Shown one piece after another: positions 6,626 through 22,829 of a DNA stretch of 64,000 nt. Source of the stretch: Actinomycetota bacterium. GTDB lineage: Bacteria > Actinomycetota > Actinomycetes > Mycobacteriales > JACQDL01. Within the stretch, counting starts at the first letter, position 1; each line of letters starts with the position of its first letter. The notes under the pieces were generated by a model that worked only from the letters and a program-made list of their open reading frames with translations, ran no database searches and was not told the origin of the DNA. Location of the stretch: assembly GCA_016201065.1 (NCBI GenBank), contig JACQDL010000011.1, positions 13,772 through 77,771 of the forward strand, written 5' to 3'. Made by a program: the position numbers and the translations under genes.

Positions 6626-6632
6626 GCCTACG

Positions 6633-6923
6633 TCACCTGGATCCAGAGATGGTCTCGGTCCGCAGCGCCAGTTTCACTTGGTGGCCGTGGCCGTGACCAC
6701 CTCTCAGGTCATCCAGAAATGTCCCGGCATCGACCTCGCTGCCGTCATGGAGCAGGTAGTACCGGGTCGTACCGTCGGCCGCAATCCCGAAGGCGGCCAG
6801 GGCGTCCGACAACACCTGTCCAACGGTCGTGGCCTTCGGGTACTCGTGCTCGTAGGGCCTGGCGGCTGCGGCGAAGGTGACGACCACCTCGACGTGGTGC
6901 TCTTCGTGGGCCTGCAGGGACAT
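6633..6923 (-). CDS. Ubiquitin-like beta-grasp protein (BilA-like / multiubiquitin-type, single domain)
   Basis: 96 aa, first gene of the operon, with strong SD ggaaggag. The pattern HVEVVVT...TTVGQVLSDALAAFGI...YYLLHDGSEVD...QVKLAL is typical of prokaryotic Ubl domains. The C-terminus is ...TETISGSR, with Gly two residues before the end. Confidence 0.65.
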   Translation of the reverse strand: MSLQAHEEHHVEVVVTFAAAARPYEHEYPKATTVGQVLSDALAAFGIAADGTTRYYLLHDGSEVDAGTFLDDLRGGHGHGHQVKLALRTETISGSR

Positions 6924-6940
6924 ATGACTCCTTCCGAGGG

Positions 6941-7031
6941 GCCGACAGCGTCGGCACTACTGCATCAGCGAAGTTGCAACGACACTTTGGCACGACGATC
7001 TGTTGCACGCAAGCGGCGCCGCACGTACTGT
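6941..7031. promoter_or_regulatory. Divergent promoter/operator region between the Ubl operon and the XRE gene
   Basis: Palindrome GCCGAC-agc-GTCGGC at 6941-6955. GTTGCAAC palindrome at 6973-6980. GTTGCACGCAA (TTGC-N2-GCAA) at 7002-7012. On the plus strand, -35 TTGCAC (7003-7008), a 17-nt spacer and -10 TACTGT (7026-7031) end 6 nt before ATG 7038, which suggests a leaderless transcript. Confidence 0.35.
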
Positions 7032-7037
7032 GCGTTC

Positions 7038-7562
7038 ATGCCGGTGGAGGGCACCGACGGGACGTCAGCAGACGACCGCGATGACTGGGTCGGGGAGGTG
7101 GAGCGCCTCGACATCGGTGCGCTCGGGCAGATGCTGCGTGAGCGCCGGGCGGGGCTTTCTATCCGGCAGGCCGCTCGGGACGCCGGGGTGAGCTTCAGCA
7201 CCTTCGCCCGGGTCGAAGGCGGCGCGCAGCCAGATCTGGCGACGTTCGCGAGACTGTGCGCCTGGCTGGGGGTGTCCCCGGCGAGGTTCTTCACCCCAGT
7301 CGTGGAGCGTGAGACATCTCCATTGGAGGACGCCATCACGCACCTGACGGGCGACCCCCGGTTGTCTGCGGTTACGGCGGGCAGGATCGCAGGAGTGTTG
7401 CGGGACATGTACGAGGCGCTCGCCCGTGACGCCGCACCACAGCCGATCATCGCCTGTCACCTCCGGGCTGCACCCCTCCTCCGCCCCGGGGTCGCCCCGC
7501 GCTTGGCTGCTCTCCTCACAGATCTGCATGACGAACTCCAGCGGCAGGTCGAGGCGCGGTAG
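7038..7562 (+). CDS. XRE-family HTH transcriptional repressor (CapH-like)
   Basis: Internal ATG at 7038 of ORF 6585..7562. HTH seen as LGQMLRERRAGLSIRQAARDAGVSFSTFARVEGG. Lies immediately upstream of an ImmA/IrrE peptidase gene (3-nt gap). Confidence 0.8.
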   Translation: MPVEGTDGTSADDRDDWVGEVERLDIGALGQMLRERRAGLSIRQAARDAGVSFSTFARVEGGAQPDLATFARLCAWLGVSPARFFTPVVERETSPLEDAITHLTGDPRLSAVTAGRIAGVLRDMYEALARDAAPQPIIACHLRAAPLLRPGVAPRLAALLTDLHDELQRQVEAR

Positions 7563-7564
7563 CT

Positions 7565-8122
7565 GTGACCCTCCCCCGAGGCTTCAAGGCCACTGCTGAG
7601 CGTGAAGCGACTCGTATCCGCCACGAAATGGGCGTATCAGAGGGTGACCCGGTCAATATCCTGTCCGTTGCGGAGCACGTCCAGGCCATAGTGGTGGGCG
7701 CCGACCGGCTGGTCGCCATCGAACGACTCGAAGAACTAGAGCGTCTTCAGGCATACGCTTTCTCGGCCGCAACATTCGACGTCAAGGGCAAGTCATACAT
7801 CGTCACCAATCCGCTCAGGTCTCGAGGGCGCCTAGCCAGCGACGTCGCCCACGAGATCGCGCACCTGCTCCTGCAACACGACCTCACTGAGATCCGCGAG
7901 ATCGAGGGCGTCCCATTTCGTACGTGCCGGCCAGATGAGGAAGAGCAGGCCACAGTGTTCGGCGGAACCCTCTTGTTGCCACGTCCCTTGCTCCTCAATG
8001 CCGCCAGGCGCGGCCTGGGTCCCGAACAGATCGCCGTCGCCTATGGTGTCACCACCGAAATGGCCCGATTTCGGTATACCACCACCGGCGTAGCCAAACA
8101 GGTTCTCCGCCGACCGCGGTAA
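7565..8122 (+). CDS. ImmA/IrrE-family zinc metallopeptidase (CapP-like)
   Basis: HExxH motif in VAHEIAHLLLQHDL. 185 aa. Paired with the upstream XRE gene. Confidence 0.85.
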   Translation: MTLPRGFKATAEREATRIRHEMGVSEGDPVNILSVAEHVQAIVVGADRLVAIERLEELERLQAYAFSAATFDVKGKSYIVTNPLRSRGRLASDVAHEIAHLLLQHDLTEIREIEGVPFRTCRPDEEEQATVFGGTLLLPRPLLLNAARRGLGPEQIAVAYGVTTEMARFRYTTTGVAKQVLRRPR

Positions 8123-8141: not shown

Positions 8142-9523
8142 CACGGGATCGGCAAGTTGGCGTTTTAGGGCGCGAAGATGCTTGTTATGGTCGCATGTCT
8201 TGTTTGACGTAGGGACGGCTTGCTGGTAGCGGTTTCTCTGATTCATGGGGATGGCCTCTAGCCCGGCATGATCACGGGTACCGAATCCTGATCTGACCGG
8301 AACAAGAGGCCATCCATGTCAGTGTCGCACGCCCGCGAGTCCGCCATGACCAACACCGACGGGGAGGCACCTGGCCTGCTGGATGTGCTCGCGCAGGTCC
8401 GGGACCCGCGTAAGAGGCGCGGGCGCAGGTTCGGCCTGGTGTTCCTGCTCGCGGTGGCGGTGGCGTGCGTGCTGGCCGGGGCGAAGAGCTTCCGGGAGAT
8501 CGGCGACCATGCCGCCGACCTGCCGCAGGACGTACTGGCCCGGCTCGATGGGAGGCCGCATCCGCTGCTGCGGCGGATCACCGTGCCCAGCGAGACACGG
8601 ATCCGCACCCTGGTCCACGCCATCGGCGCCGATGCCCTCGATGACCTGGTCGGGGGCTGGCTGCGGGCCCTGGTGGAGGCCGGCCGGTTGGACGGGCTGC
8701 TGAGGGCGATCGCGATCGACGGGAAGTGGCTGCGTGGTGTCGCCGACGGGCAGGTGAAGCTGTTCGCCGCGATGCTGCACGAGGAGAAGGTGATCATCGC
8801 CCAGCACCGCATCCCGGACGAGACGACCGAGACCACCCAGGTCAAGGAGTTGCTGGACGCCGTGGACCTGGACAACGCGGTGGTCACCGCCGACGCGGCC
8901 CACACCCAGCGCGAGACCGCCCAGTACATCGCGGGCAGCAAGGACGACGGGAACCGCGGTTGGCGACTACTTCCTGTTCCTCAAGGGAAACCAGCCGACC
9001 CTGCAGGCCGCGGTCTTCGACGCCATCCAACACGGCGGCCCCCGCGACCCGGACCACACGGAACTGGACCACGGCCATGGTCGGATCATCCGCCGCTCCA
9101 TCTGGGTCACCGACGCCGGGGACCTGGACTTCCCGCACGTGTCCCAGGTGGCGCGGATCCGCCGCGACCGCTACGACCTCGACGGCACCCTGATCAGCAA
9201 GGAAATCGTGCACGCCGTCACCAGCCTGAAAGAAGACCGCGCCACGGCCGTGGACCTCGCAAGGATCGCCCGCGGCCAGTGGGGCATCGAATCGGCGCAC
9301 TGGCTACGCGACACCACCTACGCCGAAGACGCCAATACCGGATATGCCGGGAATGGTCCGCAGGTCATGGCCACCTTCAGGAACATCGCGGTCAGCCTGC
9401 TCCACATCGCCGGCGTCACCGAGATCACCCGCACCCTCCAGGCCATCGGACGCGACCGAACCCGCCTACTCAACTACCTACCGATATGAGACCAGTATCA
9501 CAAACGACTTTACCGATCCCGTG
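8142..9523 (+). mobile_element. ISAs1-family insertion sequence (1382 bp) with 10-bp target site duplication
   Basis: Terminal inverted repeats are CACGGGATCGG(C/T)AA at 8142 and its reverse complement ending at 9523. Flanking direct repeats ATGCTGCAAG lie at 8132-8141 and 9524-9533. It encodes an ISAs1/H-repeat-type transposase. Confidence 0.85.
8316..9489 (+). pseudogene. ISAs1-family transposase, frameshifted
   Basis: The N-terminal part is in the frame of ORF 8316 (LLDVLAQVRDPRKRRGRRFGLVFLLAVAVACVLAGAKSF...TADAAHTQRETAQYIAG). The continuation (GDYFLFLKGNQPTLQAAVFDAIQ...WGIESAHWLRDTTYAEDA) is in the frame of ORF 9139..9489. A single-nt frame change lies near 8960. Confidence 0.8.
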
Positions 9524-9584
9524 ATGCTGCAAGCACCTCAACCTCACCGGCCCAACCGTCGCGACCTGTAGTGCCGGCACCGTC

Positions 9585-9672: not shown

Positions 9673-11235
9673 TCATACTTGCCGGAGTCGTTCGATCTGC
9701 CGTTCGAGGTTGATCAGATGGGTGGAGTGCGGGCCGTAGGTGATGCGGAACGCGGGCCTGAGTTCCTCCAGTACGGCGCGGGCCTCGGCGGTGCGTTGCT
9801 CCGTCGCCAGCATCTGCGCGATGACGAACCTGCTCTCAAGCACCCGTTCGGCGTTGTCCGGGTCATCGGCCTCAACGTTGCTGGTGAAGTAACGAAGATG
9901 GGCGAGCGCGGGCGCGGGTGCCCCGATTTCGGCGTAGGCGTGCCCCGCGTGGTAGGCGCACTCCAGCACCCTCGGGTGCGACGCCACCAGACCCCCAGCA
10001 CGGTACCGTTTACCAGCCCCGGCTAGGAGGGCGGCAGCGCGCCGGTACTCGCCGACGTAGAACAGGGCCAGCCCGAGCAGTTGCTGGAGTTCCAGTTCGA
10101 AGAACGGGTTGGCTGAGGAGCGTCGCAGTCCCGCTTCGAGCAGTCGCACCGCGCCGGTGTTGTCGCCACTGTCCAGCAGTGCGGCGACCGAAACGCGGAT
10201 CTGCTCGAACTCGGCATCGGTCAACGGTGCGCCACCGCCAGCGGGTTGGCGCGGTGGAGGTGGGGCGAGCAATGGAGTTCGGAACGGCCGGGTCGGGTCC
10301 CGGTTCGCACCACCCACACCCGCCCCTGGGGTGTGGGTGAAGGTCACCAGCGTGCGGTAGACCTGCTCCGCCGACGGGCGGCTGTCGGGGTCCTTGGCGA
10401 GCATCGTGTGGAGGAGCTGCTCCACCGGTTCGGGAATGTCCGCCCGGGTGGCGCGCGCCGACGGGGCCGGGGACTGGATGTGGTGGGCGCGCAGCGAGGC
10501 GTTCGGTGTGTCCAGGAACGGTGGGTCACCAGTGAGCAACTCGAACATCAGGCAGCCGAGGGAGTAGATGTCTGAGGCGGCGGTGACGGCCCGCCCCAGG
10601 TGTTGCTCGGGCGACATGTAGGTCGGGGTGCCCACGGTGCGGTCCACTTGGGTCAGCCGCGGTAGCGCGCCCGCGCCGCGCAGGATCGCGATGCCGAAGT
10701 CGAGGACCTTCACCACGCCGCCGTCGATGACCATGATGTTGGCGGGTTTGATGTCGCGGTGGACGATGTCGACCCGGTGGACGTCTGCCAGCACGGCGGC
10801 GATCTGGGCGCCGATCGCGGCGGCCCAGGAGATCGGGGGCGGTGCGGCCTCGTAGTCGGTCCGGTCGAGGAGCCCTTCGAGGGTGGAGCCTCGCAGCAGT
10901 TGCATGACCAGCCAGATCCGGGTGGAGCCGTCGGGTTGCTCGTCAATGCCGGTGTCGTAGACCGCCGGGGTACCGGGGTGTTCCAACTGTGCCGCGGTTC
11001 GGATCTCCCGGAGGAAGCGGGCACGGTCGCGTTGTTGCGCGTCGAGTAGTTCCTGGGCCTCGGGTCCATCCCCGGTGCGGGCGTGGGTGGGTTGGCGGAG
11101 CATCTTGATGGCGATGGCTCGGTCGAGGCGCTCGTCGTGGCCGTGGTAGACCTCGCTCATCCCGCCGCGGCCGAGCAGCGCGTCGACACGGTAGCGGCCG
11201 CTGAGCAGGTGTTCCGGCTCGACCTCTGGCGTCAT
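9673..11235 (-). CDS. Hanks-type Ser/Thr protein kinase with C-terminal TPR-like domain
   Basis: Kinase motifs AIKML (VAIK), HRDIKPANIMV, DFGIA and GTPTYMSPEQ. A Pro-rich linker precedes helical repeats (LLGLALFYVGEYRRAAALL..., YHAGHAYAEIG...). The ATG overlaps the hsdR stop (ATGA at 11232-11235). Confidence 0.9.
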   Translation of the reverse strand: MTPEVEPEHLLSGRYRVDALLGRGGMSEVYHGHDERLDRAIAIKMLRQPTHARTGDGPEAQELLDAQQRDRARFLREIRTAAQLEHPGTPAVYDTGIDEQPDGSTRIWLVMQLLRGSTLEGLLDRTDYEAAPPPISWAAAIGAQIAAVLADVHRVDIVHRDIKPANIMVIDGGVVKVLDFGIAILRGAGALPRLTQVDRTVGTPTYMSPEQHLGRAVTAASDIYSLGCLMFELLTGDPPFLDTPNASLRAHHIQSPAPSARATRADIPEPVEQLLHTMLAKDPDSRPSAEQVYRTLVTFTHTPGAGVGGANRDPTRPFRTPLLAPPPPRQPAGGGAPLTDAEFEQIRVSVAALLDSGDNTGAVRLLEAGLRRSSANPFFELELQQLLGLALFYVGEYRRAAALLAGAGKRYRAGGLVASHPRVLECAYHAGHAYAEIGAPAPALAHLRYFTSNVEADDPDNAERVLESRFVIAQMLATEQRTAEARAVLEELRPAFRITYGPHSTHLINLERQIERLRQV

Positions 11236-14200
11236 GGGGTGCCTGTCTGTCTGGTCATCTCCTCGCGGAGCTTGGCCAACGCTTCATCGCGCGCCGGTTC
11301 GGTGATGATGCGGTAGGCGCGACGGCGGGCGGCCTCCTTGACGGTCGCCCGGAACTCTGGGTTGTCGAAGTAGTTCTTGGTGAAGGTGGTGTTGCGGTCG
11401 GCGTTCTCGGCGACGAGGTCGTCCAGGCGATCGTCTGCGACCTGCCCGAATCGGTCTTCGTCGTTCATCAACGCGATCTGCTGCATGCCGGTGTCTTGGA
11501 CCAGGCCGGTGATCTGCTGGTAGATGAGGATCTCATCGGAGGTGCCCAGGCCGAGGCCGAACCGGTCGTTGAGTTCGGCGATCACCTCCGCCAGGGGCGC
11601 CATCTCGGGTTCGTGGCGGCCACCGCCGTCGGCGGCGTGGCCCCGCACGTCACGGTCACCGACGGCGGTCAGAGACACATCGTGCTTGCCGGTGAACTCC
11701 AACCGGAAGTGGGTCAGGTCGGCGTCGCCGACGTCGACCGCGGTCGAGGGGCGCCCCGGCAGGCGGACCAGCAGGATCCGGCCGTACTGGTAGAGCCGCT
11801 CCAGGTCGGGATCACCCCAGTCGATGATCTGTGCGAGCAGGCTGTAGGCACGCAGATAGGTCTGCAGGGCGCTGCGGAAGCCCTCACGCTCGTCATCGGT
11901 GTCCAGTGCCCGGAACCGGTCGACCGCGGGGGTGAGGTACTGGTGCAGCCGGGCGTGGAGCTTCTTCTCCGCCGTGGCCGGCAGCCGGTCGGGTCCCGCT
12001 TCACCGAGGACCCGCAGGAACGCCTGCATTTCCGAGGCCGCCAGCAGCCCGTACTCCATGACTTCGCGTTGCTTGTCGTAGAGCAGGTTGGGGTCGGCGG
12101 GCTCGGTGATCGTCGTTTCGAACCAGTCCTTGAACGCCTCCTGGATGGTGGCGGCGTCGTTGACGAAGTCCAGGATCCGTACGTCGTCCTGGGCTTTCAA
12201 CGGGTGGATCCGGTTGAGGCGCGACAGGGTCTGCACCGCGGCGACACCTGTCAGGGGCTTGTCGACGTACATGCCACACAGCAGCGGCTGGTCGAACCCG
12301 GTCTGGTACTTCTCCGCCACGACCAGCAACCGGTACTCCTCCTGGTCGCGGGCAGGAGCCTGCGGGTCGTCGGCCTTGGTGTAGGCGAACCGGTCGGGTA
12401 GTTGCGTCTCCCCGAACCCGTTCAGCTGCGCCTCGGTGTACTCCACCCCGGTGGACTCCTCCGTCAGCGACCCCGAGAACGCCACCAGCACCCCTAGGTG
12501 GTGGCCGCGTTCGTGGACGTGCCGGCGGATCGCCTGGTACAGGTCCAGGGCGTCCTGCCGGCTGCCGGTGACGACCATCGCCTTCGCCCGCCCACCCAGC
12601 CGGGGCTCGATGTCCTCCTGGAAGTCCTCGACGATCAGCTTGGCCTTCTGCGCGAGGGAGTTGGGGTGCCGTAGCGCCATGCGCACCAGCTTGGCTTTCG
12701 CCTTGGCCTCATCGACGTCGGGGTTGCTGATCGCCGAATCAAGCTGGTCGAGGGCGGCATTGCGCAGCCGCCACTTGGTGTCGTAGGTGAGGTAGTTGGC
12801 CAGCACGTCGAGGATGTAGCCCTCCTCGATCGCCTGGCGCATCGAGTACACGTGAAACGGCACGTACATGCCTGGTGTCGCATCATGCGGGTTAACCCGG
12901 TCCGGGTCCCAGGTGCCGAACAGCTTCAGGGTTGGTGACTTCGGGGTGGCGGTGAACGCGAAGTAGGACAGGTTCGGTTGCCGGCCCCGCACCCGGGTGA
13001 GGTAGGTGGCCTCGTCCTCCTCCTCATCCGCTCGGGCAGCGTTGACGCCGAGGGCCTGCTTGAGGCGGGTCGCGGCGTCCCCACCCTGGGAGGTGTGTGC
13101 CTCGTCGATGATCACGGCGTAGCGGCGACCACCCAAACCCGCGCCGGCGATCTTGTCCAGGATGTAGGGGTACTTCTGCAGCGTGCTGACTACGATCTTG
13201 GATGTGGCGTCCTCCAACGCGGCGGCGAGCTGGGTCGAGTCATCGTCGATCGTCTTGACCACACCGGGTTCGTGGTCGAACTGGAATATCGTCCGCTGCA
13301 ACTGCCGGTCCAGCGCGGTCCGGTCGGTGATCACCACCGTCTTGTGGAACACCGGGTGATTGTCGTCGTCGAAGAGGCTCGACAACCGGTGGGCCAGCCA
13401 GGCGATCGTGTTGGACTTACCCGAACCTGCCGAGTGTTGGATCAGGTAGTTGCTGCCCGCGCCGTGCGTGCGGGCGTGCGCGACCATCTTCTGCACGGCG
13501 TCCCACTGGTGGTATCGGGGGAAGATCCGGGGCGTGGTGTGCGGGCTGACCCATACCCCCTTCTTCTCCGCTTCCTGGACGTGCACGAACCGTTGTAGGA
13601 TCTCCAACCAGTTGTCCCGCTGCCAGATCTGCTCCCACAGGTACCCCACCGCGTAGCTGCCGGGCTCCGCCGGCGGGTTCCCGGATCCCCCACTCACCCC
13701 GGGGCCGCGCGAACCAATGTTGAATGGCAGGAACTGCGTGTCCTCACCCGCAAGACGGGTCGCCACGTATGCACGGTCCGGGTCAGCCGCGAAGTGAACC
13801 ACCGCACGCTTGGCGAACAACAGCTCGTTCGGATCTCGGGAACGGTACTGCGCGATCGCATGATTCACGTTTGTTCCAGTATTGGGATTCTTTAGCTCCG
13901 CGGTCGCCACCGGAATACCATTCACGAACAGGACAACATCAACCGACTTCTTGCGATCCCGGGTACTGAAGTGCACCTGCCGCGCCACGGTCAGGATGTT
14001 CGCGCCGTATTCACGCAACGCATCCGCAGCGAGTGTGTGACCGGGGCGGAAGTAGGCCAGATCAACCAGGATCCCCCGATCCTTCACACCGTAGCGGAGC
14101 ACATCGAGCACACCACGAGCATCCACCTCGGACGCCACACGCTGCGCGAACCGTCCCCGCGCCTCGGCCGCACTCCCGTAGAGCTCGACCAGCCTGTCCC

Positions 14201-14360
14201 AGCTCTCTCGCTGGCTCCCCCCGATGAACCGGAACAGCTCAGTGATATCCAAACCCAGATCCGCCTGGTACGTACCCTGGGCCATCACCCAGCCGCGTGC
14301 AAGCAGCTCGTACTCTGCACGTCCCTCAAAGCCACGCTCCCAATGCGCACCGGGACTCAT
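11232..14360 (-). CDS. hsdR: Type I restriction enzyme R subunit
   Basis: 1042 aa. Walker A HSAGSGKSNTIAW, DEAH box VIIDEAHTSQ, and the N-terminal nuclease region typical of HsdR. The ATG overlaps the stop of the reconstructed hsdS. Confidence 0.95.
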   Translation of the reverse strand: MSPGAHWERGFEGRAEYELLARGWVMAQGTYQADLGLDITELFRFIGGSQRESWDRLVELYGSAAEARGRFAQRVASEVDARGVLDVLRYGVKDRGILVDLAYFRPGHTLAADALREYGANILTVARQVHFSTRDRKKSVDVVLFVNGIPVATAELKNPNTGTNVNHAIAQYRSRDPNELLFAKRAVVHFAADPDRAYVATRLAGEDTQFLPFNIGSRGPGVSGGSGNPPAEPGSYAVGYLWEQIWQRDNWLEILQRFVHVQEAEKKGVWVSPHTTPRIFPRYHQWDAVQKMVAHARTHGAGSNYLIQHSAGSGKSNTIAWLAHRLSSLFDDDNHPVFHKTVVITDRTALDRQLQRTIFQFDHEPGVVKTIDDDSTQLAAALEDATSKIVVSTLQKYPYILDKIAGAGLGGRRYAVIIDEAHTSQGGDAATRLKQALGVNAARADEEEDEATYLTRVRGRQPNLSYFAFTATPKSPTLKLFGTWDPDRVNPHDATPGMYVPFHVYSMRQAIEEGYILDVLANYLTYDTKWRLRNAALDQLDSAISNPDVDEAKAKAKLVRMALRHPNSLAQKAKLIVEDFQEDIEPRLGGRAKAMVVTGSRQDALDLYQAIRRHVHERGHHLGVLVAFSGSLTEESTGVEYTEAQLNGFGETQLPDRFAYTKADDPQAPARDQEEYRLLVVAEKYQTGFDQPLLCGMYVDKPLTGVAAVQTLSRLNRIHPLKAQDDVRILDFVNDAATIQEAFKDWFETTITEPADPNLLYDKQREVMEYGLLAASEMQAFLRVLGEAGPDRLPATAEKKLHARLHQYLTPAVDRFRALDTDDEREGFRSALQTYLRAYSLLAQIIDWGDPDLERLYQYGRILLVRLPGRPSTAVDVGDADLTHFRLEFTGKHDVSLTAVGDRDVRGHAADGGGRHEPEMAPLAEVIAELNDRFGLGLGTSDEILIYQQITGLVQDTGMQQIALMNDEDRFGQVADDRLDDLVAENADRNTTFTKNYFDNPEFRATVKEAARRRAYRIITEPARDEALAKLREEMTRQTGTP

Positions 14361-14552
14361 GCTACCCCTCGCCTCGCCGTAGTTGCGTCGAGCTGACCGG
14401 TCACGGCGGCAGTTATAACTGCCTGACGGCGTTCAGACAGAAGCTCTCGGAGACGGCCAACTTCATCGCGCAGCGGTCTCGTTACGCGAATCGCATTCCC
14501 GATTTCGCGCTGCTCCATCGGATGAACGCGGGGAACCGCTATGCTTCCGAAA

Positions 14553-16255
14553 GTAAGCAGTCAGGGGTAGGCGGTTTGGGTGGTTACGCTGCGAGAGCGG
14601 ATGCGGTGGTGTTGCGGGGTGGCATCCAGGCGGTGTTGTTGAGGGCGTCGCGGATCGCGTCGAGGGGCCGGCAGCCGTGGTTGCGGGCGGTGATGAGGTA
14701 GGACCGGATGCGGCAGTGGCGTTGCAGGGTGGCCAGGGTGCGCCAGCAGCCGGAGACCTTCTGGGCGAGCTTGAAGCCACGGATCGCGGCTTCGGATCCG
14801 TTGTTCGTGGGGGGCACGTCGGTGCGGGTGGTGAACAACCACACCTGGTCGGTTTTGCGTTTCAGGCGTCTGGCGAGGACCAGACCGGGGTGGTTGCCCT
14901 TGGGCCAGGGCCGGGAGGTGTTGATCGAGATCCCGCAGGCCACGGCCTGGTCGAACTTCTCGCGGGCCCGGGTGATGGCGTCGGCATCCAGGGCGGTGCC
15001 GTTGCGGCGGGTGTGGTTGACGGCGTGGATCGCCACCCGTAGGGCGTCGGCGGCCTGGATGCTCCAGGCCTGGGTGAGTGGGTCGATGTCGGTGACGTCC
15101 TGTAGGTGGCGGAGCATGTGAGCAAGGCATTGCTGCACGCCCGCCAGGCCGGTGTCATAGGACAGGTACCCACCGAAGTCGTCACGAACCAGGGTCCCGG
15201 TGTAGTTGTCCAGTATCGGCGAACGCGGTGATCTCCTTCTTGGTGCGGGTCCCGGCCGCACCGAACCACACCAGGTCCGCCCCACCACCGGTGTAGCCGT
15301 GCAGGGTCCGCACGGTGAACACGTGCGGGTTGCTGATGTCCGCACCCGTCGTGGCGGCCTGGGTGGTGGCGCCGGAGGTGCTGATCGGGGCGGGTGTCTC
15401 ATCGGTGCCCAGCACGTCGGCTTCGCACAGCGCCGCCTTCAACGCCTCCTCGAATCCGGCCCCGCTCAACGCGGCATCCAACCGGGCCAGGCAAGCCGAG
15501 ACGTACCCGGTGGAGACCGGCACCCCCAACAGCGCCGACATCATCTCCGCAGCCCGCTCGACGCCGATCACGTCCTGGGACGCCAGCCATGTCGAGGCCG
15601 CCGCGACCTGCGGGCCATAGCAGGCCGGACCACCCCGCACCCCGACCGGCAGCTCCGCGGTCGTGGCACACCCACACGCACAGACCCGCCGCATGATCAG
15701 GTACTCGGTCACCGTCACCGCCAACACGGGCAGGTCGAACACCTGCACATTGGAGGCGACCGACCCGCGCGCACCGACCAAACTGCCACCACAACCGGAG
15801 CACACGGCAGGCTCCACCGCGTCGGTCCGGTCCGCCTCCGCCACCCGCGCCAGACCACGACCCCGATGCCCCGGCTGCCCACCCTGCTTCCGCTTGACCA
15901 CACCCCGCCCGGGTGACCCCACCGCGTCCGACCCATCGGAGGAGTCGTCCCCGGACCCGGCGCTCCCACCGGGCTTGGCCCTCGCCCTCGACGCGGGCCC
16001 GTCCTGGCTCGGTGGCAGCGACGAGTTCGACGAATCCCGGCCCGCGGCCCGCCGCAACGCGACCAACTCCACCCGCATCGCCTCGATCAGCGCCGCCTGC
16101 TCAGCCAACTGCGCGCTCTGCACCGCGACCAGCGCCACCAACTCCTCATACGAGGCCGGCACGGGCGAATCAGACACGCCCCAGAGTCAAACATGATCAA
16201 ACCCCAGCCAGCAACACCGACCCACCCCAGCTCACCCGGGGGCCTGACTGCTTAC
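14553..16255 (-). mobile_element. IS66-family (single-ORF type) insertion sequence, 1703 bp, 8-bp target site duplication
   Basis: Terminal inverted repeats are GTAAGCAGTCAGG at 14553-14565 and its reverse complement CCTGACTGCTTAC at 16243-16255. Direct repeats TTCCGAAA lie at 14545-14552 and 16256-16263. Confidence 0.85.
14584..16177 (-). pseudogene. IS66-family transposase, frameshifted
   Basis: The N-terminal ORF 15182..16177 has a leucine-zipper-like LAEQAALIEAMRVELVALRR and zinc-finger CSGCGG. The C-terminal ORF 14584..15402 reads DNYTGTLVRDDFGGYLSYD...QQCLAHMLRHL. A single-nt frame change lies near 15213. Confidence 0.8.
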
Positions 16256-17275
16256 TTCCGAAACGCTCCCAATTTCGAAAGTCTATCGCCCGCTCACGAG
16301 CACTGCCACCGAAGAGACTTAGATACCCATCCAGAGCAAGGATACGAAGCAGTCGCCCATAGAATGCGGCATCGCCACTGTCTCGCGGAAGACACACGTG
16401 ATAGACTGGACTGCAGATGCCGCTAGATTCCGAGTCGCCGATAGAGCCAGCGAATCCATCTAATCCATGTACCACTACATCCCCGACCTCGACCCCCTGA
16501 ACATACGGATCAGACTTGGCCGATTCGGTGAATCCGTGCGTCCGCCGCTCGTCGCGCGCTACCACTTGACCGTCACGAAATTCTGACACAATCGAATCTT
16601 GGGTAGCTCGCCGCTGCAACTTCACAATTAGTCGCTTCAGCGGGACGAGATCAGACCCGTCAACGCTGGCAATCTTACTTCGACCGATCACCGTTCGCAC
16701 ACGCGCATCGACACGATCATTGTTTAGATCTACCAGTCGCCGATTGGCCTCTAGCAATCGGTCTATCGCGTCAACCTTGGCGTCAAGGAAGTCGACGATG
16801 CGCTGTTGCTCATCTAGTGGTGGGTGGAGCAGCGGGAGCAAACGAAGTGAGTCCCAAGGGACATCGAACTGAGACGGCGGCATGAACTTCGATATTCTCG
16901 TCAGTTCGGACAAATAAGGTCTCGAAAGAAGCAGATAATTCAGATATCGAGGAGACCAGCCAGAGTTCGGGCGACAGACGTAGTATGCGGGACTAACAAT
17001 TCCGTCTCGGGGAGAAACGCCGAGACCTCCCTGCCAAGTCCGTAGCTTGTTGAACACTACATCGCCGACCCGGACATATTGATACTTGCCGAGGTCCTCG
17101 CCGAGGTTATTGTGGTTGTCCGACCGAGATTCCCTGGGAATCACTCCAGCATTCAGAAATACGGACAGTGGTTCAGCTTCTGGCTTGCCAGTTTCTTGTA
17201 TCCTCCGAGTGGCCACGCAGAGTCGCATCCACCGCCAGCCATCGGGTAGATCAATTTCCTGCAGCACTCCTTGAC

Positions 17276-19252
17276 TCACCCTGTCACCTTGCCCAGCAGT
17301 TTCTGGATCTGCGCCTCCAGGTCCCGCAGTTCGACGTCGATCTCCGCCAGCGGCCGGGGCGGCGTGTAGACGTAGAAGTGACGGGTGAAGGGGATCTCGT
17401 AGCCAACCTTGGTCTTCTCGCGGTCGATCCACGCATCTGGGACATGCGGAGTCACCTCCCGCTGGAAGTACTCCTCGATGTCCTCGTCGAGCGGAATGTT
17501 CTCATAGTCGCGCAGGTCTGGGTCGGGCAGCACCTGGCCCTTGGCCCTTTGCACCTCGCCTTCGGGATCAGAGACTGCCACGGCGCCCCAGATTCCTTTG
17601 AGGATCGACTGGGTCGAAGGCCAGAACACACCGGCCCTACGCCCGGCGGCGCGTAGGGCGTCGCTAGCTTCGGCCTTCGTCCACCACGTCGTGCCAAGGA
17701 GGGGACGTACTGCCCCGAGAAAGGCGTCTCGCTGCTCCCATTTCCCGAGCGGTTTCGCGTGTTCGAGGGCAGCGAGGGTGTCCTCGGTGATCTCGAAGCG
17801 CTGCTTGAGAGGACGCTCAACGGTGATCCGGTGGTAGCCGAAGTCGCGAGTACGGAACACCTTGACCCTCCCGTGGTCGGGGTGTTCGGGGTCGGCCGCG
17901 ATGGCGAGCGCGTTGCCGTAGACGGTGGTGATGTGATCGATCTGGGCGTCGCTGATGAGTTTGCGCTTGTCGCCCAGTGATTTGCGCATCTTTTCCCACT
18001 GGTCCCGGGCATCGAGCAGGATCACCTTGTCGCGCAACACTGGGGATTTGCGGTTGGAGAGGATCCAGAAGTAGGTGGAGATGCCTGTGTTGTAGAACAG
18101 CTGGTCGGGCAGGGCGACGATGCCTTCCAGGAGATCGTTCTCAAGGATCCACTGTCTGATGCGTGACTCGCCTGAGCCAGCGGCCCCGGTGAACAGGGGT
18201 GATCCGTTGAAGACGATGGCGAGACGGCAGCCCTTGCCCTCGATCGGCTCCATCTTGGAGATCATGTGTTGGAGGAAGAGGAACGACCCGTCGTTGATCC
18301 GCGGCAATCCGGCCCCGAACCGACCCGCATGGCCCTGTTCCGCCTCGCGTTCGACAGTGTCCTTGACCTTCTTCCACTCCACCCCGAAAGGTGGATTGGC
18401 GAGCATGTAATCGAACGTCTTGCCCTGGTGCGCGGGCGCGCTGAAGGTGTTACCGAAGGCGATCGTGCCGCGGTGTTCGCTGATCAACATGTCTGCCTGA
18501 CAGATCGCCCACGACTCCCCGTTAACCTCCTGTCCGAACAGGTACACCTCCGCCTTCGGGTTGATCTCCTTGATGCGGTCCTCGGCCGCGGTGAGTATCC
18601 CACCGGTCCCGCAGGCCGGGTCCAGGATGTTGATTACCTGCCCGTCTCCGGCCACCGTGTCCGAGTCCGGTGCGATGAGGAGGTTCACCATGAGCTTGAT
18701 GACCTCGCGGGGGGTGAAGTGCTCACCGGCGGTCTCGTTGGAGTCCTCAGCGAACTTGCGGATCAGGTGCTCGAAGACATACCCCATGTCGTGGTTGGAC
18801 AGCTTGTCCAGGTCCCGCATCGCGGCGAACCGCCCCACGACCTGATAGAGGAGTTTCGCCCCCATCAGGCGTGTGATCTGTTCATCCAGCTGGAACCGCT
18901 TCAGGATGTCCTGGACGTTCGGGGAGAAACCGTTGACGTAGTCGCGGAGGTTCTTCGCGGTTCGGGCCGCATCCGCCGCGATCGACTCGAAGTCCTGGCT
19001 GGAGACGTTGTAGAAGGGTAGCTTCGCCGCGCGGGTCAGGAGCGGATGCTTGTTCTCGATGCCGGCGCTGTGCTTGTTGCGTTCGTGGACCGCATCCCGG
19101 GTCGGCGCCATCACCGAGTCCAGGCGACGCAGCAGCGTGAACGGCAAGATGGCCTGACCGTACTCGTGGCGCTTGTAGTCACCACGCAGCAGGTCGGCAA
19201 CGGCCCAGATCTCGCTGGCCATCCGAGTGTGGCTCGGACCGGAACTGGTCAC
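17276..19252 (-). CDS. hsdM: Type I R-M DNA methyltransferase subunit
   Basis: 658 aa. Motif I ILDPACGTGGIL and motif IV DYMLANPPFGVEW, with an HsdM N-terminal domain. The start overlaps the upstream gene's stop (ATGA at 19249-19252). Confidence 0.95.
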   Translation of the reverse strand: MTSSGPSHTRMASEIWAVADLLRGDYKRHEYGQAILPFTLLRRLDSVMAPTRDAVHERNKHSAGIENKHPLLTRAAKLPFYNVSSQDFESIAADAARTAKNLRDYVNGFSPNVQDILKRFQLDEQITRLMGAKLLYQVVGRFAAMRDLDKLSNHDMGYVFEHLIRKFAEDSNETAGEHFTPREVIKLMVNLLIAPDSDTVAGDGQVINILDPACGTGGILTAAEDRIKEINPKAEVYLFGQEVNGESWAICQADMLISEHRGTIAFGNTFSAPAHQGKTFDYMLANPPFGVEWKKVKDTVEREAEQGHAGRFGAGLPRINDGSFLFLQHMISKMEPIEGKGCRLAIVFNGSPLFTGAAGSGESRIRQWILENDLLEGIVALPDQLFYNTGISTYFWILSNRKSPVLRDKVILLDARDQWEKMRKSLGDKRKLISDAQIDHITTVYGNALAIAADPEHPDHGRVKVFRTRDFGYHRITVERPLKQRFEITEDTLAALEHAKPLGKWEQRDAFLGAVRPLLGTTWWTKAEASDALRAAGRRAGVFWPSTQSILKGIWGAVAVSDPEGEVQRAKGQVLPDPDLRDYENIPLDEDIEEYFQREVTPHVPDAWIDREKTKVGYEIPFTRHFYVYTPPRPLAEIDVELRDLEAQIQKLLGKVTG

Positions 19253-20952
19253 GTCGTTCCCCTTAGCTTCTTATCGGTCTCAGTATCGATAGTCTCGCCC
19301 GGGCCCACCGCTGCCGGCATCAGGGCTCCGGTGGTCAAGCCGTATATAGTCTGGTCCAGGATCGCTCGGGTCACCCCAGCCAGACGGTCCGCCACCATCT
19401 CCAACTGCTCCAGCAGCCGGAAGGCGTCTCCGTAGCGACGCTGCTCGGCCAGGGTCAACCGTGGTATCCGGCAGCGTCGCACGTCGTCGCGGGTCAGCGC
19501 GCCGTGGGTGTTCGCCACCGGCGCCGCCAACGCGTCGGTCCGCACGAACCGTGCAACAAAATGCGGATCCAGGCGGTCGGTGTCGATTCCGATCACTTGG
19601 GCGATGCCCCGTTCGTCCTCCGGCGTCCCGCGGGCCACGACCGGTTCGCGCCCCATGGTGCGAAACAGCAGATCACCCGCCCGGGGAGTGGCATCCCGTG
19701 GCAGGATCGTGAGCGCCTTGGACCGTTCCAGCTCACCCAACGTCACCTCAGGAAATCGTGGTGGCACGCCCGGCGCCACTGGCCTCGGTAGTGCCTGTCC
19801 GAGCTTGGCGTGCAGCCTCGCCACCCGATGGGTGAACTGCCCGAGGTCGGCGACCGACTCACCGAACCGGGCCCGCAGGTACCGCGACGGCACCAGCGGC
19901 ACCTCACCATCCAACAGCTCCGCCTGCGGCACCACCCGCGCCACCGGCGCGTGATCCCCGGCCCACAGCGCGTGCCAGGCCGCGTGCACCTGCGGCACGT
20001 CCGCAGCAGCACCGACCCCGGTCAGATCCACCATCCGCACACCCCGTGCGACACCGCCACGCTGTAGCACCCACAGGTGCACCGCACCCGCACCGGAGGG
20101 TGTCAAGCCCTCCGGCAATGCGATGACCGCACGTAGCACCCCAGCCCGCACCAACGCATCCCGCACGTGACGGCCGGAAGGACGCACCCCCGTCACCGCC
20201 GGCACCATCACCACAGCCATCCCACGCGGACGCAGGTGCCCCAGGCAGTGCTGCACCCACGCCAACTCCGGATCGGCCGGATCGGGCAGGCCGTACCGCC
20301 ACCGTGGATCGGCGGCAAGGTCCGGCGCGGGCCACTGCCGCACCGATGGCGGCGGGATGCACACCACCGCGCGTGCGGTCGCGCGGGACGCGGCGAACCG
20401 GTCCGCCTGCAGCGCATCACCCACCCGAACATCCGCATCGAGGCCAGACAGCGATCGGCGCACCGCCTCGGCGTGGACCTCATCCGGGGCCTGCCCAGCA
20501 AGGCGCACATGGTCACCGAACCGCTCGGCTACCGCCGTGAGGACAATCGCGTCCCGGCACGCCGGATCCAACACGACTGGGGGGTCCACCTCGTCGCCGG
20601 GACGATCGGTATCACCCAGGCGGGGCAACAGGGACACCACCACGCGCGCTAGCAGCTCCGGCGGGGTCAACGCTGTCGGGCCACGATCGGGATTCCCTGG
20701 CGGCGATGCGTCACCGAGCTGCTGCGTCCCGGTGCTGGTACGGCCCTCCGCCGCAAGCTGCTCCGCCTTCCCCGTGTCCACGAGCCACTGCTGCACAGCG
20801 GCCCAGGAGAACAACGGGCTGTTGGGCCCACCCGCGACGGGCTGCGGGAATTCGGGATACCGCCTGCGCCAGTTCGCCACCGCCGCTCGGCCAACACCGA
20901 CCCGCCGGGCGATCCATGCGGCGGTGACGGCGCCCGAGACCTCACTGTTCAC
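19249..20952 (-). CDS. HTH + N6-methyltransferase-like (degenerate motifs) + HsdS-like TRD fusion protein
   Basis: 567 aa, GTG start. N-terminal HTH (VTAAWIARRVGVGRAAVANWRRRYPEFPQP). The central gamma-class MTase-like fold has motif I as VLDPACRDAIVL (no GxG) and motif IV as VVCIPPPSV (no NPPF/Y). The C-terminal half-TRD with conserved helix reads CRIPRLTLAEQRRYGDAFRLLEQL. Confidence 0.7.
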   Translation of the reverse strand: MNSEVSGAVTAAWIARRVGVGRAAVANWRRRYPEFPQPVAGGPNSPLFSWAAVQQWLVDTGKAEQLAAEGRTSTGTQQLGDASPPGNPDRGPTALTPPELLARVVVSLLPRLGDTDRPGDEVDPPVVLDPACRDAIVLTAVAERFGDHVRLAGQAPDEVHAEAVRRSLSGLDADVRVGDALQADRFAASRATARAVVCIPPPSVRQWPAPDLAADPRWRYGLPDPADPELAWVQHCLGHLRPRGMAVVMVPAVTGVRPSGRHVRDALVRAGVLRAVIALPEGLTPSGAGAVHLWVLQRGGVARGVRMVDLTGVGAAADVPQVHAAWHALWAGDHAPVARVVPQAELLDGEVPLVPSRYLRARFGESVADLGQFTHRVARLHAKLGQALPRPVAPGVPPRFPEVTLGELERSKALTILPRDATPRAGDLLFRTMGREPVVARGTPEDERGIAQVIGIDTDRLDPHFVARFVRTDALAAPVANTHGALTRDDVRRCRIPRLTLAEQRRYGDAFRLLEQLEMVADRLAGVTRAILDQTIYGLTTGALMPAAVGPGETIDTETDKKLRGTT

Positions 20953-20990
20953 ACTTAGACCGTATCACGTCGTTAGTTGGTCTGTGAACA
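20946..20990. promoter_or_regulatory. Inverted repeat spanning the start codon of the HTH-methylase-like gene
   Basis: TGTTCACA at 20946-20953 and TGTGAACA at 20983-20990 form a perfect 8-bp inverted repeat. Extra GACC/GGTC pairing lies in the AT-richer divergent intergenic region. The GTG start (20952) sits inside the left arm. Confidence 0.3.
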
Positions 20991-21122
20991 TCTTACAAAC
21001 GCTCACATGATGCTACGGTGTCTCCGTCGTTGCACGCGGTCCTCCCGCCATCCGGGCCGCGAAGCACGGCCCCATCAGGACCGGAGCTGATCCGGTTCGA
21101 GACCACGAAAGGAACCCACGCC

Positions 21123-22829
21123 ATGCCAAACAGCAGCTCGCACCAGCGCCATCGGGTGCGCCACAAGCAGCGGCGCACGGCCGTCGCGCCCACCCGCCCG
21201 GTCACCCTGCACCGGCTGCTTGAGGGCAGCAGCTTCGACGACGCACTGGACTACCTCGAAGACCAAGCGCTGGAGGACCTCGATGCGAACGTGGACTTCG
21301 TGGAACTGCCCGGATCGCGTGCACTGTTCGTGCATGCCCAGGAGCCCGCCCGACCGGCGGAGTGGTGCGCCCAGGCGAGCATCACGACCGGGATCGACGT
21401 TCGCTATGCCACCCGCGGCGCCGGAGGTCTCCTGATCTTCCAGCTCGACGGCGACGTGTACGCCCTCGGCTACGGCAAGGGCCACCTCTGGCTCAGCGAC
21501 GCGGTGAAGGACCCGCGTTTCGGCCTCCACTACGCCATCCGCAGCGTGGACGCCGACCAGATCCTCGACGTAGTGCGTCGACTACCCGGCGCACGAGGCC
21601 GCACCGACAGCACCCTCGTTCCCGGTGGCACCACAGTCTGGCAGCTTGGGATCGAGCGCCATGCCGAGATCGTCCGCCGGATCGGCGGCCTGGTCGAGAA
21701 CAGCTCCTTGACCTTCGCGCGGGCCCGCGGGCGCTCGGTCAAGGTCGCCGGTGCCTGCGGGCTACATCTGCGCCTGGGCGTGAAGCCGGCGGACCTCGTA
21801 TCGGACGTACGCGAGATCGCCGCCGTATGCCTCCGCCAGGTCCCACACCCCGACCTTGCATTCGTGGAGAACGTCACGCCCGTCACCAGCCAGGCCCTCA
21901 TCGCGGACCTGAACACGCAGCTCGACACGCTCCTCGGCGAGGTCACCCCCGCTGTGGACCGGCTCACGGTCACAGTCCCCGATGCCGCCCTGCCACACCT
22001 GGCGGACGCCCACGGGTTCGCTGTGCGCATCGGCAGCGCCACCAGGAGGCTCACCGATCTACACCGCGAAGACGTACTCGACCGGACCCGGCTGCAGCCG
22101 CCTGGTCGGCGCATCGACGGCCTACGAGCAGGGTGGATCGGCCTGTTGGCTGAGGACACGGGCACCCGGTCCCTGGGCAGATCATCGGCGTTGAAGTGGA
22201 TCGAAGCCACCGCGTCAGTGGGCCCGCGCCGGTTCTTCCTGCTGGAGGGCCAGTGGTACGAGTTCGGTGCCACCTATCTTGAGGAGGTCCGCGACTACAT
22301 CGGCGGCCTGCTGAATCGCGGCGCCCCCACCCTCGACCTGCCCGCCTGGCGCCCCGATATGAAGGAGAAGGACTACAACCTTTACGTAGCCGACGTGCGG
22401 CGCAGCCAGTATCTCTGCCTCGACCGGCGCGGAGTTACCACTCGCCTACACCGCACACACGGCGTCGAAATCTGCGATCTACTCGGCCCGAACGACGAAC
22501 TCATCCACGTCAAGCGCGCCAGCGGATCTCCGCCGCTCAGCCATCTCTTCGCGCAAGGCCAAGTCGCCGCCGAGACTCTGATCAACTCGCCCGAGGCCCG
22601 GCGTTCCTTCTCCAAGCTCGTGGGCACCGCTGGCCGGGGCCGCACGATCCCGGAAGACTTCACCCCCAAGAAGATCGTCTACGCCATCCTGCTCAAGAAC
22701 GGCGAGGCCCTGACACCGGATACCCTGTTCCCGTTCTCACAGGTCGCTCTCCGCCAAGCCAGCATCTCCCTCCGGGGAAAGACCGAGGTGGAGATCATCC
22801 CGATCCACTTGGCGCAGCCCGGCCCATGA
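21123..22829 (+). CDS. TIGR04141/DUF6119-like sporadically distributed protein with putative PD-(D/E)xK-like C-terminal core
   Basis: ATG at 21123 is preceded by gaaagga. The C-terminal signature is YNLYVADVRRSQYLCLDRRGV...GVEICDLLGPNDELIHVKRASGSPPLSHLFAQGQVAAETL, matching the pattern I recall for TIGR04141. It lies divergent to the R-M operon. Confidence 0.65.
   Translation: MPNSSSHQRHRVRHKQRRTAVAPTRPVTLHRLLEGSSFDDALDYLEDQALEDLDANVDFVELPGSRALFVHAQEPARPAEWCAQASITTGIDVRYATRGAGGLLIFQLDGDVYALGYGKGHLWLSDAVKDPRFGLHYAIRSVDADQILDVVRRLPGARGRTDSTLVPGGTTVWQLGIERHAEIVRRIGGLVENSSLTFARARGRSVKVAGACGLHLRLGVKPADLVSDVREIAAVCLRQVPHPDLAFVENVTPVTSQALIADLNTQLDTLLGEVTPAVDRLTVTVPDAALPHLADAHGFAVRIGSATRRLTDLHREDVLDRTRLQPPGRRIDGLRAGWIGLLAEDTGTRSLGRSSALKWIEATASVGPRRFFLLEGQWYEFGATYLEEVRDYIGGLLNRGAPTLDLPAWRPDMKEKDYNLYVADVRRSQYLCLDRRGVTTRLHRTHGVEICDLLGPNDELIHVKRASGSPPLSHLFAQGQVAAETLINSPEARRSFSKLVGTAGRGRTIPEDFTPKKIVYAILLKNGEALTPDTLFPFSQVALRQASISLRGKTEVEIIPIHLAQPGP

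Follow-up and report, generated by a model that had tools for sequence, protein, structure and literature searches.

psiM, a gene on the reverse strand of a 64,000-nucleotide stretch of DNA from an Actinomycetota bacterium (the window; assembly GCA_016201065.1, contig JACQDL010000011.1, positions 13,772 to 77,771), encodes a fusion of a helix-turn-helix (HTH) domain, an HsdM-type methyltransferase fold and half of an HsdS protein. The motifs for cofactor binding and catalysis are degenerate, and the protein is very likely catalytically dead, so that it would neither bind S-adenosylmethionine (SAM) nor methylate DNA. The gene heads an operon of Type I restriction-modification (R-M) genes and a Ser/Thr kinase, and its promoter region carries a conserved palindrome. 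Tentatively, and with slightly less than an even chance of being right, psiM is read here as the controller of this restriction/kinase operon, acting through that palindrome. The gene and the parts of its product, including the target recognition domain (TRD), are as follows.

19249–20952, reverse strand: psiM, GTG start, 567 amino acids (aa), called as an open reading frame (ORF); HTH, pseudo-N6-methyltransferase and half-HsdS
20773–20952, reverse strand: N-terminal winged HTH, aa 1–60 (AlphaFold2 (AF2) helices 11–18 and 22–31, strand 46–49, helix 50–60)
20581–20772, reverse strand: low-confidence linker, aa 61–124 (predicted local distance difference test score (pLDDT) below 50 at residues 68–90)
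19948–20580, reverse strand: HsdM-type methyltransferase fold, aa 125–335 (Pfam, phmmer, Foldseek)
20539–20574, reverse strand: degenerate motif I, VLDPACRDAIVL (RDA where GxG is expected), aligned to VYDPACGTGGML of 7vru_A
20341–20367, reverse strand: degenerate motif IV, VVCIPPPSV (IPPP for NPPF), aligned by phmmer to VIANPPFSL of 7vru_A
19768–19947, reverse strand: helical connector, aa 336–395, with a long helix at 366–387 (AF2 secondary structure)
19462–19767, reverse strand: single HsdS-like TRD, aa 396–497 (hhalign)
19318–19461, reverse strand: HsdS-like conserved-region helix, aa 498–545 (CRIPRLTLAEQRRYGDAFRLLEQL...), with a 40-residue helix at 501–541 (AF2; HsdS alignment)

The loss of the catalytic motifs is seen at four places. 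In a phmmer comparison with the PDB, VLDPACRDAIVL of psiM pairs with VYDPACGTGGML of PacII M1 (7vru_A), so that DPACRDAI stands opposite DPACGTGG and the (D/E)xxxGxG turn that binds SAM is missing. This independent alignment places motifs I and IV exactly where an earlier note on this DNA had put them by eye. The acidic residue of motif II, which binds the SAM ribose, is also gone; the window protein and its subclade read GQA, while most other clade members read GQE. The aromatic residue that precedes 'TP' in motif X is a leucine in psiM (PTALTPPEL), as compared with AGEHFTPREV in HsdM. An intact catalytic motif elsewhere in the protein, which would have spoken for activity, was looked for over the full length of psiM, and no [DNS]PP[FYW] is present; the only PP sites are SPPG, TPPE, DPPV, IPPP and VPPR. 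The adjacent hsdM, as had been noted earlier, retains both canonical motifs (ILDPACGTGGIL and LANPPFGV). With motifs X, I, II and IV altered and the HTH, TRD and conserved helix retained, the sequence fits the catalytically dead, sequence-reading paralog that the note had proposed. The same positions are degenerate in more than 100 homologs, and the loss in psiM is therefore not a matter of chance.

The fold itself is well supported. The methyltransferase (MTase)-like centre matches Pfam N6_Mtase (PF02384) at residues 126–309 (E 5.4e-16, 59.2 bits against a gathering cut-off of 20.4 bits), which together with the PacII alignment bears out the N6-adenine MTase-like centre of the earlier reading. 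PADLOC's REBASE-derived Type I MTase model PDLC03037 also matches psiM (E 3e-58), and the score against the HsdM equivalog NCBIfam TIGR00497 is 16.3 bits, below the curated cut-off of 242.75. An AF2 model built with 40 homologs has a mean pLDDT of 76, with the methylase core above 85. Its best Foldseek match in the PDB is PacII M1 (E 3e-17), and other matches include the 'intact MTase' of V. vulnificus YJ016 (7eew, 503 columns), HsdM structures and M.TaqI; E values for HsdM and PacII structures range from 1e-17 to 1e-13.

The N-terminus is supported as an HTH by the AF2 topology. Pfam gives sub-threshold matches only, to HTH_28 (0.0085) for the window protein, to HTH_17 (0.031) and MerR_1 (0.11) for the ortholog at locus L002, and to HTH_23. 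The HTH of the earlier note therefore stands, and its assignment to the HTH_17/excisionase-like group in particular is no more than suggestive. The linker that follows carries a clade-invariant TGKxxQLxxxGRTxTGTQ in the alignment (invariant columns T60, G61, Q65, L66, G70, T72, T74 and G75), and then the LTPxxLLARV helix that is the remnant of motif X. The Thr-rich portion, GRTxTGTQ (aa 70–77, 20722–20745), is invariant in the clade, falls in the predicted disordered linker and is absent from distant relatives; as a matter of speculation, it is a candidate phospho-acceptor for the Ser/Thr kinase of the same operon.

The C-terminal 232 aa (residues 336–567) match no Pfam family at E values up to 5, Methylase_S (PF01420) included, so that of the two profiles that had been proposed as a check N6_Mtase is found and Methylase_S is not. 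When the alignment of the family's C-termini was compared by hhalign with 14 HsdS proteins of these operons, both TRD1 and TRD2 were matched (95.6% probability, E 1e-8), and the match takes in the start of the conserved helix (IPRLxLxEQRR). This agrees with the HsdS-like TRD and conserved helix that had been described at the C-terminus. The architecture of psiM is thus HTH, pseudo-HsdM and half-HsdS, the last consisting of helix 366–387, the TRD and helix 501–541. In the model, helix 366–387 is proposed to be the first coiled-coil helix of the half-HsdS. Half-HsdS proteins act as dimers, and for this reason a two-fold symmetric dimer is predicted for psiM.

The degenerate state extends well beyond the window. 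There are more than 1000 homologs of psiM, actinobacterial wherever they are named and closest in Pseudonocardia, and a scan of one genome per species found a relative in at least 568 GTDB species. In a neighbour-joining tree all sequences of at least 43% identity form one monophyletic clade. Motif I in the top 120 homologs consists of VLDPAC, four hypervariable residues (RDAI, FNAT, SEGT, GEAT, HDPA and others) and LL; within the clade, the positions where GxG was lost are hypervariable and stand between invariant structural residues. Of the 19 clade sequences compared, 18 have no GxG (the exception, L014, has GTG; homologous loci are given L numbers here), and nearly all of the top 120 homologs lack it as well. 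At motif IV most of these 120 have EPPF or EPPL, and [IVL]PPx is found in the Pseudonocardia subclade to which the window belongs.

The psiM clade is nested in the tree among relatives that keep DPACGxG, GQE and often D/NPPF. At about 30–35% identity, relatives keep DPACGxG and GQE, often with DPPF, NPPF or HPPF. Inside the clade, the Pseudonocardia subclade has lost, besides GxG, also GQE and the E and F of motif IV. On the evidence of the aligned sequences and the tree, the decay is stepwise, from intact motifs to a GxG-less protein with EPPF and then to GQA with [IVL]PPx. The orthologs are 50–73% identical across genera, are without disruptions and have invariant blocks in every domain, and as judged from these sequences the degenerate state is older than the split of the genera. 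Within the clade, pairs of sequences are on average 67% identical in the HTH, 62% in the MTase-like domain, 65% in the TRD and 61% in the conserved helix; with each domain at 61–67%, psiM is not decaying as a whole. Motif IV is also labile among the more distant loci L034 to L084, where DPPA or DPPV (in a large Streptomyces group), QPPT/S, APPF, I/VPPF and HPPF occur with DPACGxG and GQE intact. This pattern suggests several independent losses of adenine methylation in which SAM binding would have been kept.

The promoter region of psiM contains the following features.

20983–21007, reverse strand: operator-like palindrome TGTGAGC-N11-GTTCACA, whose right arm contains the −35-like TTCACA of the psiM promoter
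20959–20964, reverse strand: −10-like TACGGT, 6 nt before the GTG start, a leaderless-type arrangement
20947–20953, reverse strand: third half-site, TGTGAAC, overlapping the GTG start codon

In the aligned upstream regions a palindrome of the form TGTGAAC-N11-13-GTTCACA precedes psiM across genera. A scan allowing at most two mismatches within 300 nt upstream of the HTH-coding anchor found it in 17 of 19 clade loci and in 2 of 66 distant loci, with 10 occurrences elsewhere in 1.75 Mb. Upstream of the gene, the half-site TGTG[AT]AC occurs in the clade at 8.9 per kb, about 100 times its density elsewhere (0.087 per kb); for distant relatives the figures are 3.3 and 0.071 per kb, a ratio of about 46. 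The whole window has just two exact half-sites, and both lie in the psiM promoter region. TTCACA precedes TACGGT by 18 nt, and TAnnnT is found 6–8 nt ahead of the start codon in 18 of 19 aligned upstream sequences (the exception is L015). Such recurrence is a sign of a promoter of the leaderless type and speaks for the psiM start as annotated. A site for CRP or GlxR was considered and rejected. The half-site does hold TGTGA, yet the arms here read TGTGA-N16-TCACA; the spacing in the CRP consensus is N6.

Identity between the clades is highest in the HTH (55%), the best-kept domain, and is 29% in the TRD. Because both the half-site and the HTH are shared between clades and the TRD is not, the comparison points to the HTH as the probable reader of the half-site, and so to autoregulation. 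Of the roles that the earlier note had offered, that of a controller gains indirect support from the palindrome in 17 of 19 loci and from the enrichment of its half-sites, although the likeness to C proteins that had been drawn with it does not hold.

A targeting role for the R-M system, which had been put forward as well, is disfavoured. The TRDs of HsdS are 23–29% identical at the same loci where the TRD of psiM is 65% identical. Low identity is expected of HsdS TRDs with diversifying specificity; the constancy of the psiM TRD implies that psiM recognises something constant, and argues for a fixed target, which may be a site on DNA or a partner protein.

The neighbouring genes in the window, among them an insertion sequence (IS) element, are these.

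17276–19252, reverse strand: hsdM, canonical (DPACGTGG, NPPF), its start overlapping the psiM stop by 4 nt
16256–17279, reverse strand: 5' part of hsdS (TRD1, central helix and most of TRD2), interrupted by the IS element
14553–16255, reverse strand: IS66-family element of 1703 bp, inserted in hsdS
14357–14552, reverse strand: 3' part of hsdS (C-terminal conserved helix, ending ERRQAVITAAVTGQLDATT; tblastn)
11232–14360, reverse strand: hsdR
9673–11235, reverse strand: Ser/Thr protein kinase with a TPR-like C-terminus, its start overlapping the hsdR stop by 4 nt
21120–22829, forward strand: DUF6119/TIGR04141 protein, divergent from the shared promoter region, its ORF open from 21018

Overlaps of 4 nt at psiM/hsdM, hsdM/hsdS and hsdR/kinase imply translational coupling. 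The same order, with divergent DUF6119 followed by psiM, hsdM, hsdS, hsdR and the kinase, is seen in four annotated contigs (Microbispora, Streptomyces, a metagenome and Kineosporiaceae). In tblastn searches with the window proteins, hsdM and hsdR follow psiM at all 18 close loci, the kinase at 17 (the exception is a truncated contig), and DUF6119 lies upstream at 13. hsdS was detected by tblastn between hsdM and hsdR at 11 of the 18, and in 14 loci the hsdM–hsdR interval yielded ORFs of 388–444 aa that carry the conserved C-terminal helix of HsdS. At about half of the distant loci the kinase directly follows the psiM relative and R-M genes are absent. The earlier note had linked psiM with the kinase, a link that holds at the level of synteny alone, in the 17 close loci and this half of the distant ones. 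Some distant relatives adjoin DUF6119 or McrBC. At L041 and L057 a relative with intact motifs stands in the full hsdM–hsdR–kinase arrangement, and L046 begins alike before its contig ends inside hsdM; the architecture of the operon is therefore older than the loss of catalysis. The earlier note had seen neither the family-wide degeneracy with its decay series nor the conservation of the operon, the break of hsdS by the IS element or the operator.

In the mechanism proposed here, psiM would be a pseudoenzyme derived from a methyltransferase, with an HsdM-type fold unable to bind SAM or to methylate. It would dimerise through its coiled-coil helices into a two-fold symmetric body presenting two HTHs and two TRDs. 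As the first, translationally coupled gene of a conserved actinobacterial psiM–hsdM–hsdS–hsdR–kinase operon, it would supply a protein that binds TGTGAAC-N11-13-GTTCACA at its own promoter, where the upstream region serves the divergent DUF6119 gene as well. Occupancy of the palindrome would then set the expression of the restriction/kinase module, much as M.SsoII and M.Ecl18kI do, with methylation discarded. The sequences and models show the fold, the degenerate motifs with their pattern across the clade, the half-HsdS domain, the synteny with its gene overlaps, and the conserved operator and its place; we infer the dimerisation, the operator binding through the HTH, the direction of regulation and any cross-talk with the kinase.

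Several observations weigh against this reading. A simple scan of the psiM upstream region for a sigma-70 consensus promoter found none, and the −35 and −10 elements rest on the reading of the aligned upstream regions. The palindrome could be read by another factor, such as DUF6119 or a host regulator. The half-sites are about 19 bp apart, centre to centre, a distance that neither the dimer of a classical HTH protein nor the paired TRDs of a Type I enzyme would match unless a large dimer is assumed. If regulation were all that is needed, conservation of the TRD and the MTase-like core (62–65%) would seem to exceed the demands on a dimerisation scaffold, which hints at a further ligand or partner. 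Linkage to the kinase persists even at loci without R-M genes, and a purely controlling role leaves this unexplained.

The linkage to the kinase and the strong conservation of the TRD and the MTase-like core make a kinase-coupled role, as sensor or subunit, a serious rival, and one that is compatible with a controller role. It is unlikely, but worth weighing, that psiM serves mainly in a composite defence machine, as its structural or sensor subunit, and not mainly as a transcription factor. It would form a dead (M-S)2 clamp whose conserved groove binds DNA, or a phage DNA-mimic anti-restriction protein, and would signal to the kinase and perhaps to DUF6119, backing up an inhibited Type I enzyme in the spirit of PrrC or Ronin. 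The kinase follows psiM-family genes both in the close loci and in about half of the distant loci that lack R-M genes, where a divergent PP2C phosphatase often lies upstream. The TRD is conserved as for a fixed ligand, the operon genes are translationally coupled, the kinase has intact catalytic motifs, and the invariant GRTxTGTQ of the disordered linker offers a candidate phospho-site. Type I MTase cores are also known targets of Ocr and ArdA, and 7eew and 7bst are among the fold matches of psiM. However, the basis for this role is synteny alone, DUF6119 occurs outside psiM operons too, and the conserved promoter palindrome is not explained by sensing itself, though the two roles could coexist. 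An extension of this idea is improbable. It would make DUF6119 and psiM–hsdM–hsdS–hsdR–kinase, with the R-M-less PP2C/HTH-MTase-TRD/kinase relatives, an undescribed actinobacterial defence/signalling architecture, in which the clamp senses DNA or a DNA mimic, kinase and phosphatase give the readout, the Type I enzyme is a nested effector and psiM regulates itself. The methyltransferase-derived clamp would under this extension be alive in some lineages and dead in that of the window.

A quite improbable alternative makes psiM a specificity or assembly subunit of the Type I enzyme, one that replaces one HsdM or supplies a TRD within an asymmetric complex with HsdM, HsdS and HsdR, analogous to M1M2S enzymes such as PacII. 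psiM does lie directly upstream of hsdM with a 4-nt overlap, its best sequence and structure matches are PacII M1 and M2, and the PDLC03037 match points the same way. Yet the HsdS proteins of these operons are of full length and contain two TRDs as well as both conserved helices, with no TRD lacking, and the TRD and helices of psiM would themselves clash with normal M2S assembly. Nor does the psiM TRD diversify together with HsdS; relatives exist without any hsdM, hsdS or hsdR, and both M subunits of the PacII type keep NPPF or NPPY (PMC9613975). Continued methyltransferase activity, with E or I/V in place of D/N and SAM held without the GxG turn, is very improbable. DPAC, GD(S/A)L, the PP of motif IV, ADPRWxFGxP and ELAWVQH are conserved, so that the fold and much of the pocket wall persist, and most clade members outside Pseudonocardia keep GQE and EPPF. 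Against this, four cofactor or catalytic elements have changed at once in the window protein, the residues that replace GxG are bulky or charged and unconstrained across the clade, motif IV of the Pseudonocardia subclade has neither a polar residue nor an aromatic, and the EPPL-type site of METTL14 is experimentally inactive (PMC5023411). That psiM is a functionless, decaying relic is hardly credible. The hsdS of the window is interrupted by the IS66 element, and R-M genes look interrupted at L004, L012 and L014 as well. However, the psiM ORF is full length and is conserved at 50–73% across many genera with invariant blocks in all domains, its degenerate state predates the split of the genera, and the insertion looks recent.

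The controller reading of psiM has its nearer analogue in M.SsoII and M.Ecl18kI rather than in C proteins. The HTH-bearing methyltransferases M.SsoII, M.Ecl18kI, M.EcoRII and M.MspI autoregulate their own R-M systems (PMC2760811, PMC3978073); in M.Ecl18kI and M.SsoII the N-terminal HTH sits down on a palindrome, the operator, that lies between divergent genes, and the methylase promoter is thereby occluded (PMC2760811). Shared with psiM are the fusion of an N-terminal HTH to a methyltransferase body and, at the sequence level, a palindrome between divergent genes that overlaps the methylase promoter and is distinct from the methylation site. In M.Ecl18kI the methylase body is required for operator binding. 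However, M.SsoII-type proteins are active C5-cytosine Type II enzymes, whereas psiM has a gamma N6-adenine HsdM-type fold with dead motifs and an added half-HsdS, and sits in a Type I and kinase operon. The operators also differ, with two 7-bp arms 11–13 bp apart for psiM and a compact 15-bp repeat for the M.SsoII type. C proteins share the proposed role, as dimeric HTH proteins that bind a palindrome at an R-M promoter and time expression. They are small (~80 aa), XRE-type and bind C-boxes, unlike psiM and its site; identification of psiM as a C protein was rejected on its length of 567 aa, on the lack of any XRE, HTH_3 or HTH_31 match in Pfam and on the lack of a C-box.

As a degenerate paralog of an active N6-adenine MTase, psiM resembles METTL14, whose EPPL site is structurally occluded and inactive while METTL3 has DPPW (PMC5023411); most of the psiM clade has EPPF or EPPL at this position. 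METTL14 is retained as a non-catalytic, nucleic-acid-binding partner (PMC5023411). It differs from psiM in being a eukaryotic RNA enzyme of another MTase subclass, which forms a heterodimer with its active paralog and lacks the HTH and TRD. PacII (7vru/7vs4), whose M1 is the best match of psiM, likewise has two HsdM-type genes side by side. Both of its M subunits are active, with NPPF for m6A and NPPY for m4C, and share one HsdS (PMC9613975). They lack an HTH and a TRD, whereas psiM has IPPP and a TRD of its own, and the locus is thus not a two-M system of this kind.

The defence loci of MADS (methylation-associated defence system) and Pgl/BREX type 2 also combine a methyltransferase-like gene with a Hanks-type kinase, but the nuclease/ATPase at the psiM locus is a classical HsdR. 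Profile matches to MAD2 and MAD6 are weak, and membership in MADS was rejected on NCBIfam cut-offs (MAD2 45 against 720 bits, on hsdM; MAD6 132 against 460 bits). PADLOC gave no other mad matches, and no PglY or PglZ component is present. M.TaqI-type enzymes, 7eew and the half-S dimers of EcoR124I-NT, which is reportedly an engineered form, share with psiM an MTase domain to which one TRD with coiled-coil helices is joined, an arrangement that implies a symmetric dimer on a palindromic bipartite site. The equivalence of 7eew to psiM is taken from the Foldseek alignment length (503 columns) and the title of the entry only. Methylases of this kind, with an M-S fusion or half-HsdS, are catalytically active and have no HTH, unlike psiM.

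Taken singly, HTH-methylase regulators, two-M Type I systems and pseudoenzymes derived from methyltransferases are already known. In the searchable literature no description was found of a clade-wide dead HTH–HsdM–half-HsdS protein heading a Type I and kinase operon with its own operator, and literature searches on DUF6119/TIGR04141, on actinobacterial R-M with kinase and PP2C, and on MADS turned up no account of the psiM operon. Public annotation labels psiM 'N-6 DNA methylase', and defence finders call it a Type I methyltransferase. Active methylases would accordingly be over-counted when R-M inventories are drawn up, or methylomes assigned to genes, in Streptomyces, Pseudonocardia, Nocardia and their relatives. 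The decay series would trace the path from a DNA methyltransferase to a DNA-binding protein that no longer catalyses, as a counterpart in bacteria of pseudoenzymes like METTL14. The locus represents an unstudied module, a Type I system hard-wired to a Ser/Thr kinase and a methylase-derived regulator with a candidate operator. In antibiotic-producing actinomycetes it opens the regulation of Type I restriction, or signalling around it, to direct tests, which also bears on improving their transformability.

The IS66 element in hsdS is bounded by inverted repeats of 13 bp (GTAAGCAGTCAGG) and flanked by a target-site duplication of 8 bp (TTCCGAAA; 14545–14552 and 16256–16263), and its transposase is divided over two overlapping frames (15182–16177 and 14584–15402). 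Excision in silico gives back a 403-aa HsdS that ends in the ERRQAVITAAVTGQLDATT helix of the family and abuts hsdR. Because the repeats and the duplication are intact and excision restores the ORF, the insertion looks recent. The Type I enzyme of the window has probably been inactivated by it; psiM, hsdM, hsdR and the kinase, with its VAIK/HRD/DFG-type motifs, are intact. At L004 (13686–16900) hsdR is divided into products of 164 and 911 aa with a gap, and the HsdR matches at L012 and L014 are partial; the restriction genes of the operon may often be inactivated. The GC content falls to 0.595 over window positions 16001–18000 (hsdS and the 3' end of hsdM), as compared with 0.65–0.70 around it, a dip consistent with horizontally exchanged TRD sequence.

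A triad recurs among the distant loci (L026, L033, L038, L065 and others, at ~9.0–12.7 kb in each). It consists of a divergent PP2C phosphatase, an HTH-MTase-TRD protein with intact motifs and a kinase, with no R-M genes, and its promoters bear related half-sites (TTCACAAG...CTTGTGAAC). At L079 (11634–16824, Streptomyces antibioticus) a DPPA-type relative lies between DUF6119 and a group of UvrD-like helicase, McrC and McrB (AAA_5, DUF4357), a defence-island setting unlike that of the window.

DUF6119 itself has no sequence match in the PDB and no PADLOC model, and its sole PHROG match is of unknown function. A Foldseek search of the PDB with its AF2 model (pLDDT 81, predicted template modelling score (pTM) 0.74) gave nothing better than E 4e-3, with TM scores below 0.15. 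An invariant block of E450, D453, V464, K465, S474 and H475 (EICDLL..ELIHVKR..LSHLF) is a possible active site; a PD-(D/E)xK-like nuclease was guessed at from its EICDLL and ELIHVKR parts, and no claim is made of it. The family was also found away from psiM operons, at L085 and L087.

NUDIX and HTH_31 genes lie near some loci and were rejected as parts of the operon on account of their inconsistent placement. Beyond the kinase, the window contains a DDE transposase (8316–9524, forward strand), a pair formed by an HTH_31 protein and an IrrE-like Peptidase_M78 (6585–7562 and 7565–8122, forward strand) and a ThiF-family protein (4262–5737, reverse strand). An HTH_31 and M78 gene also follows the kinase at L003.

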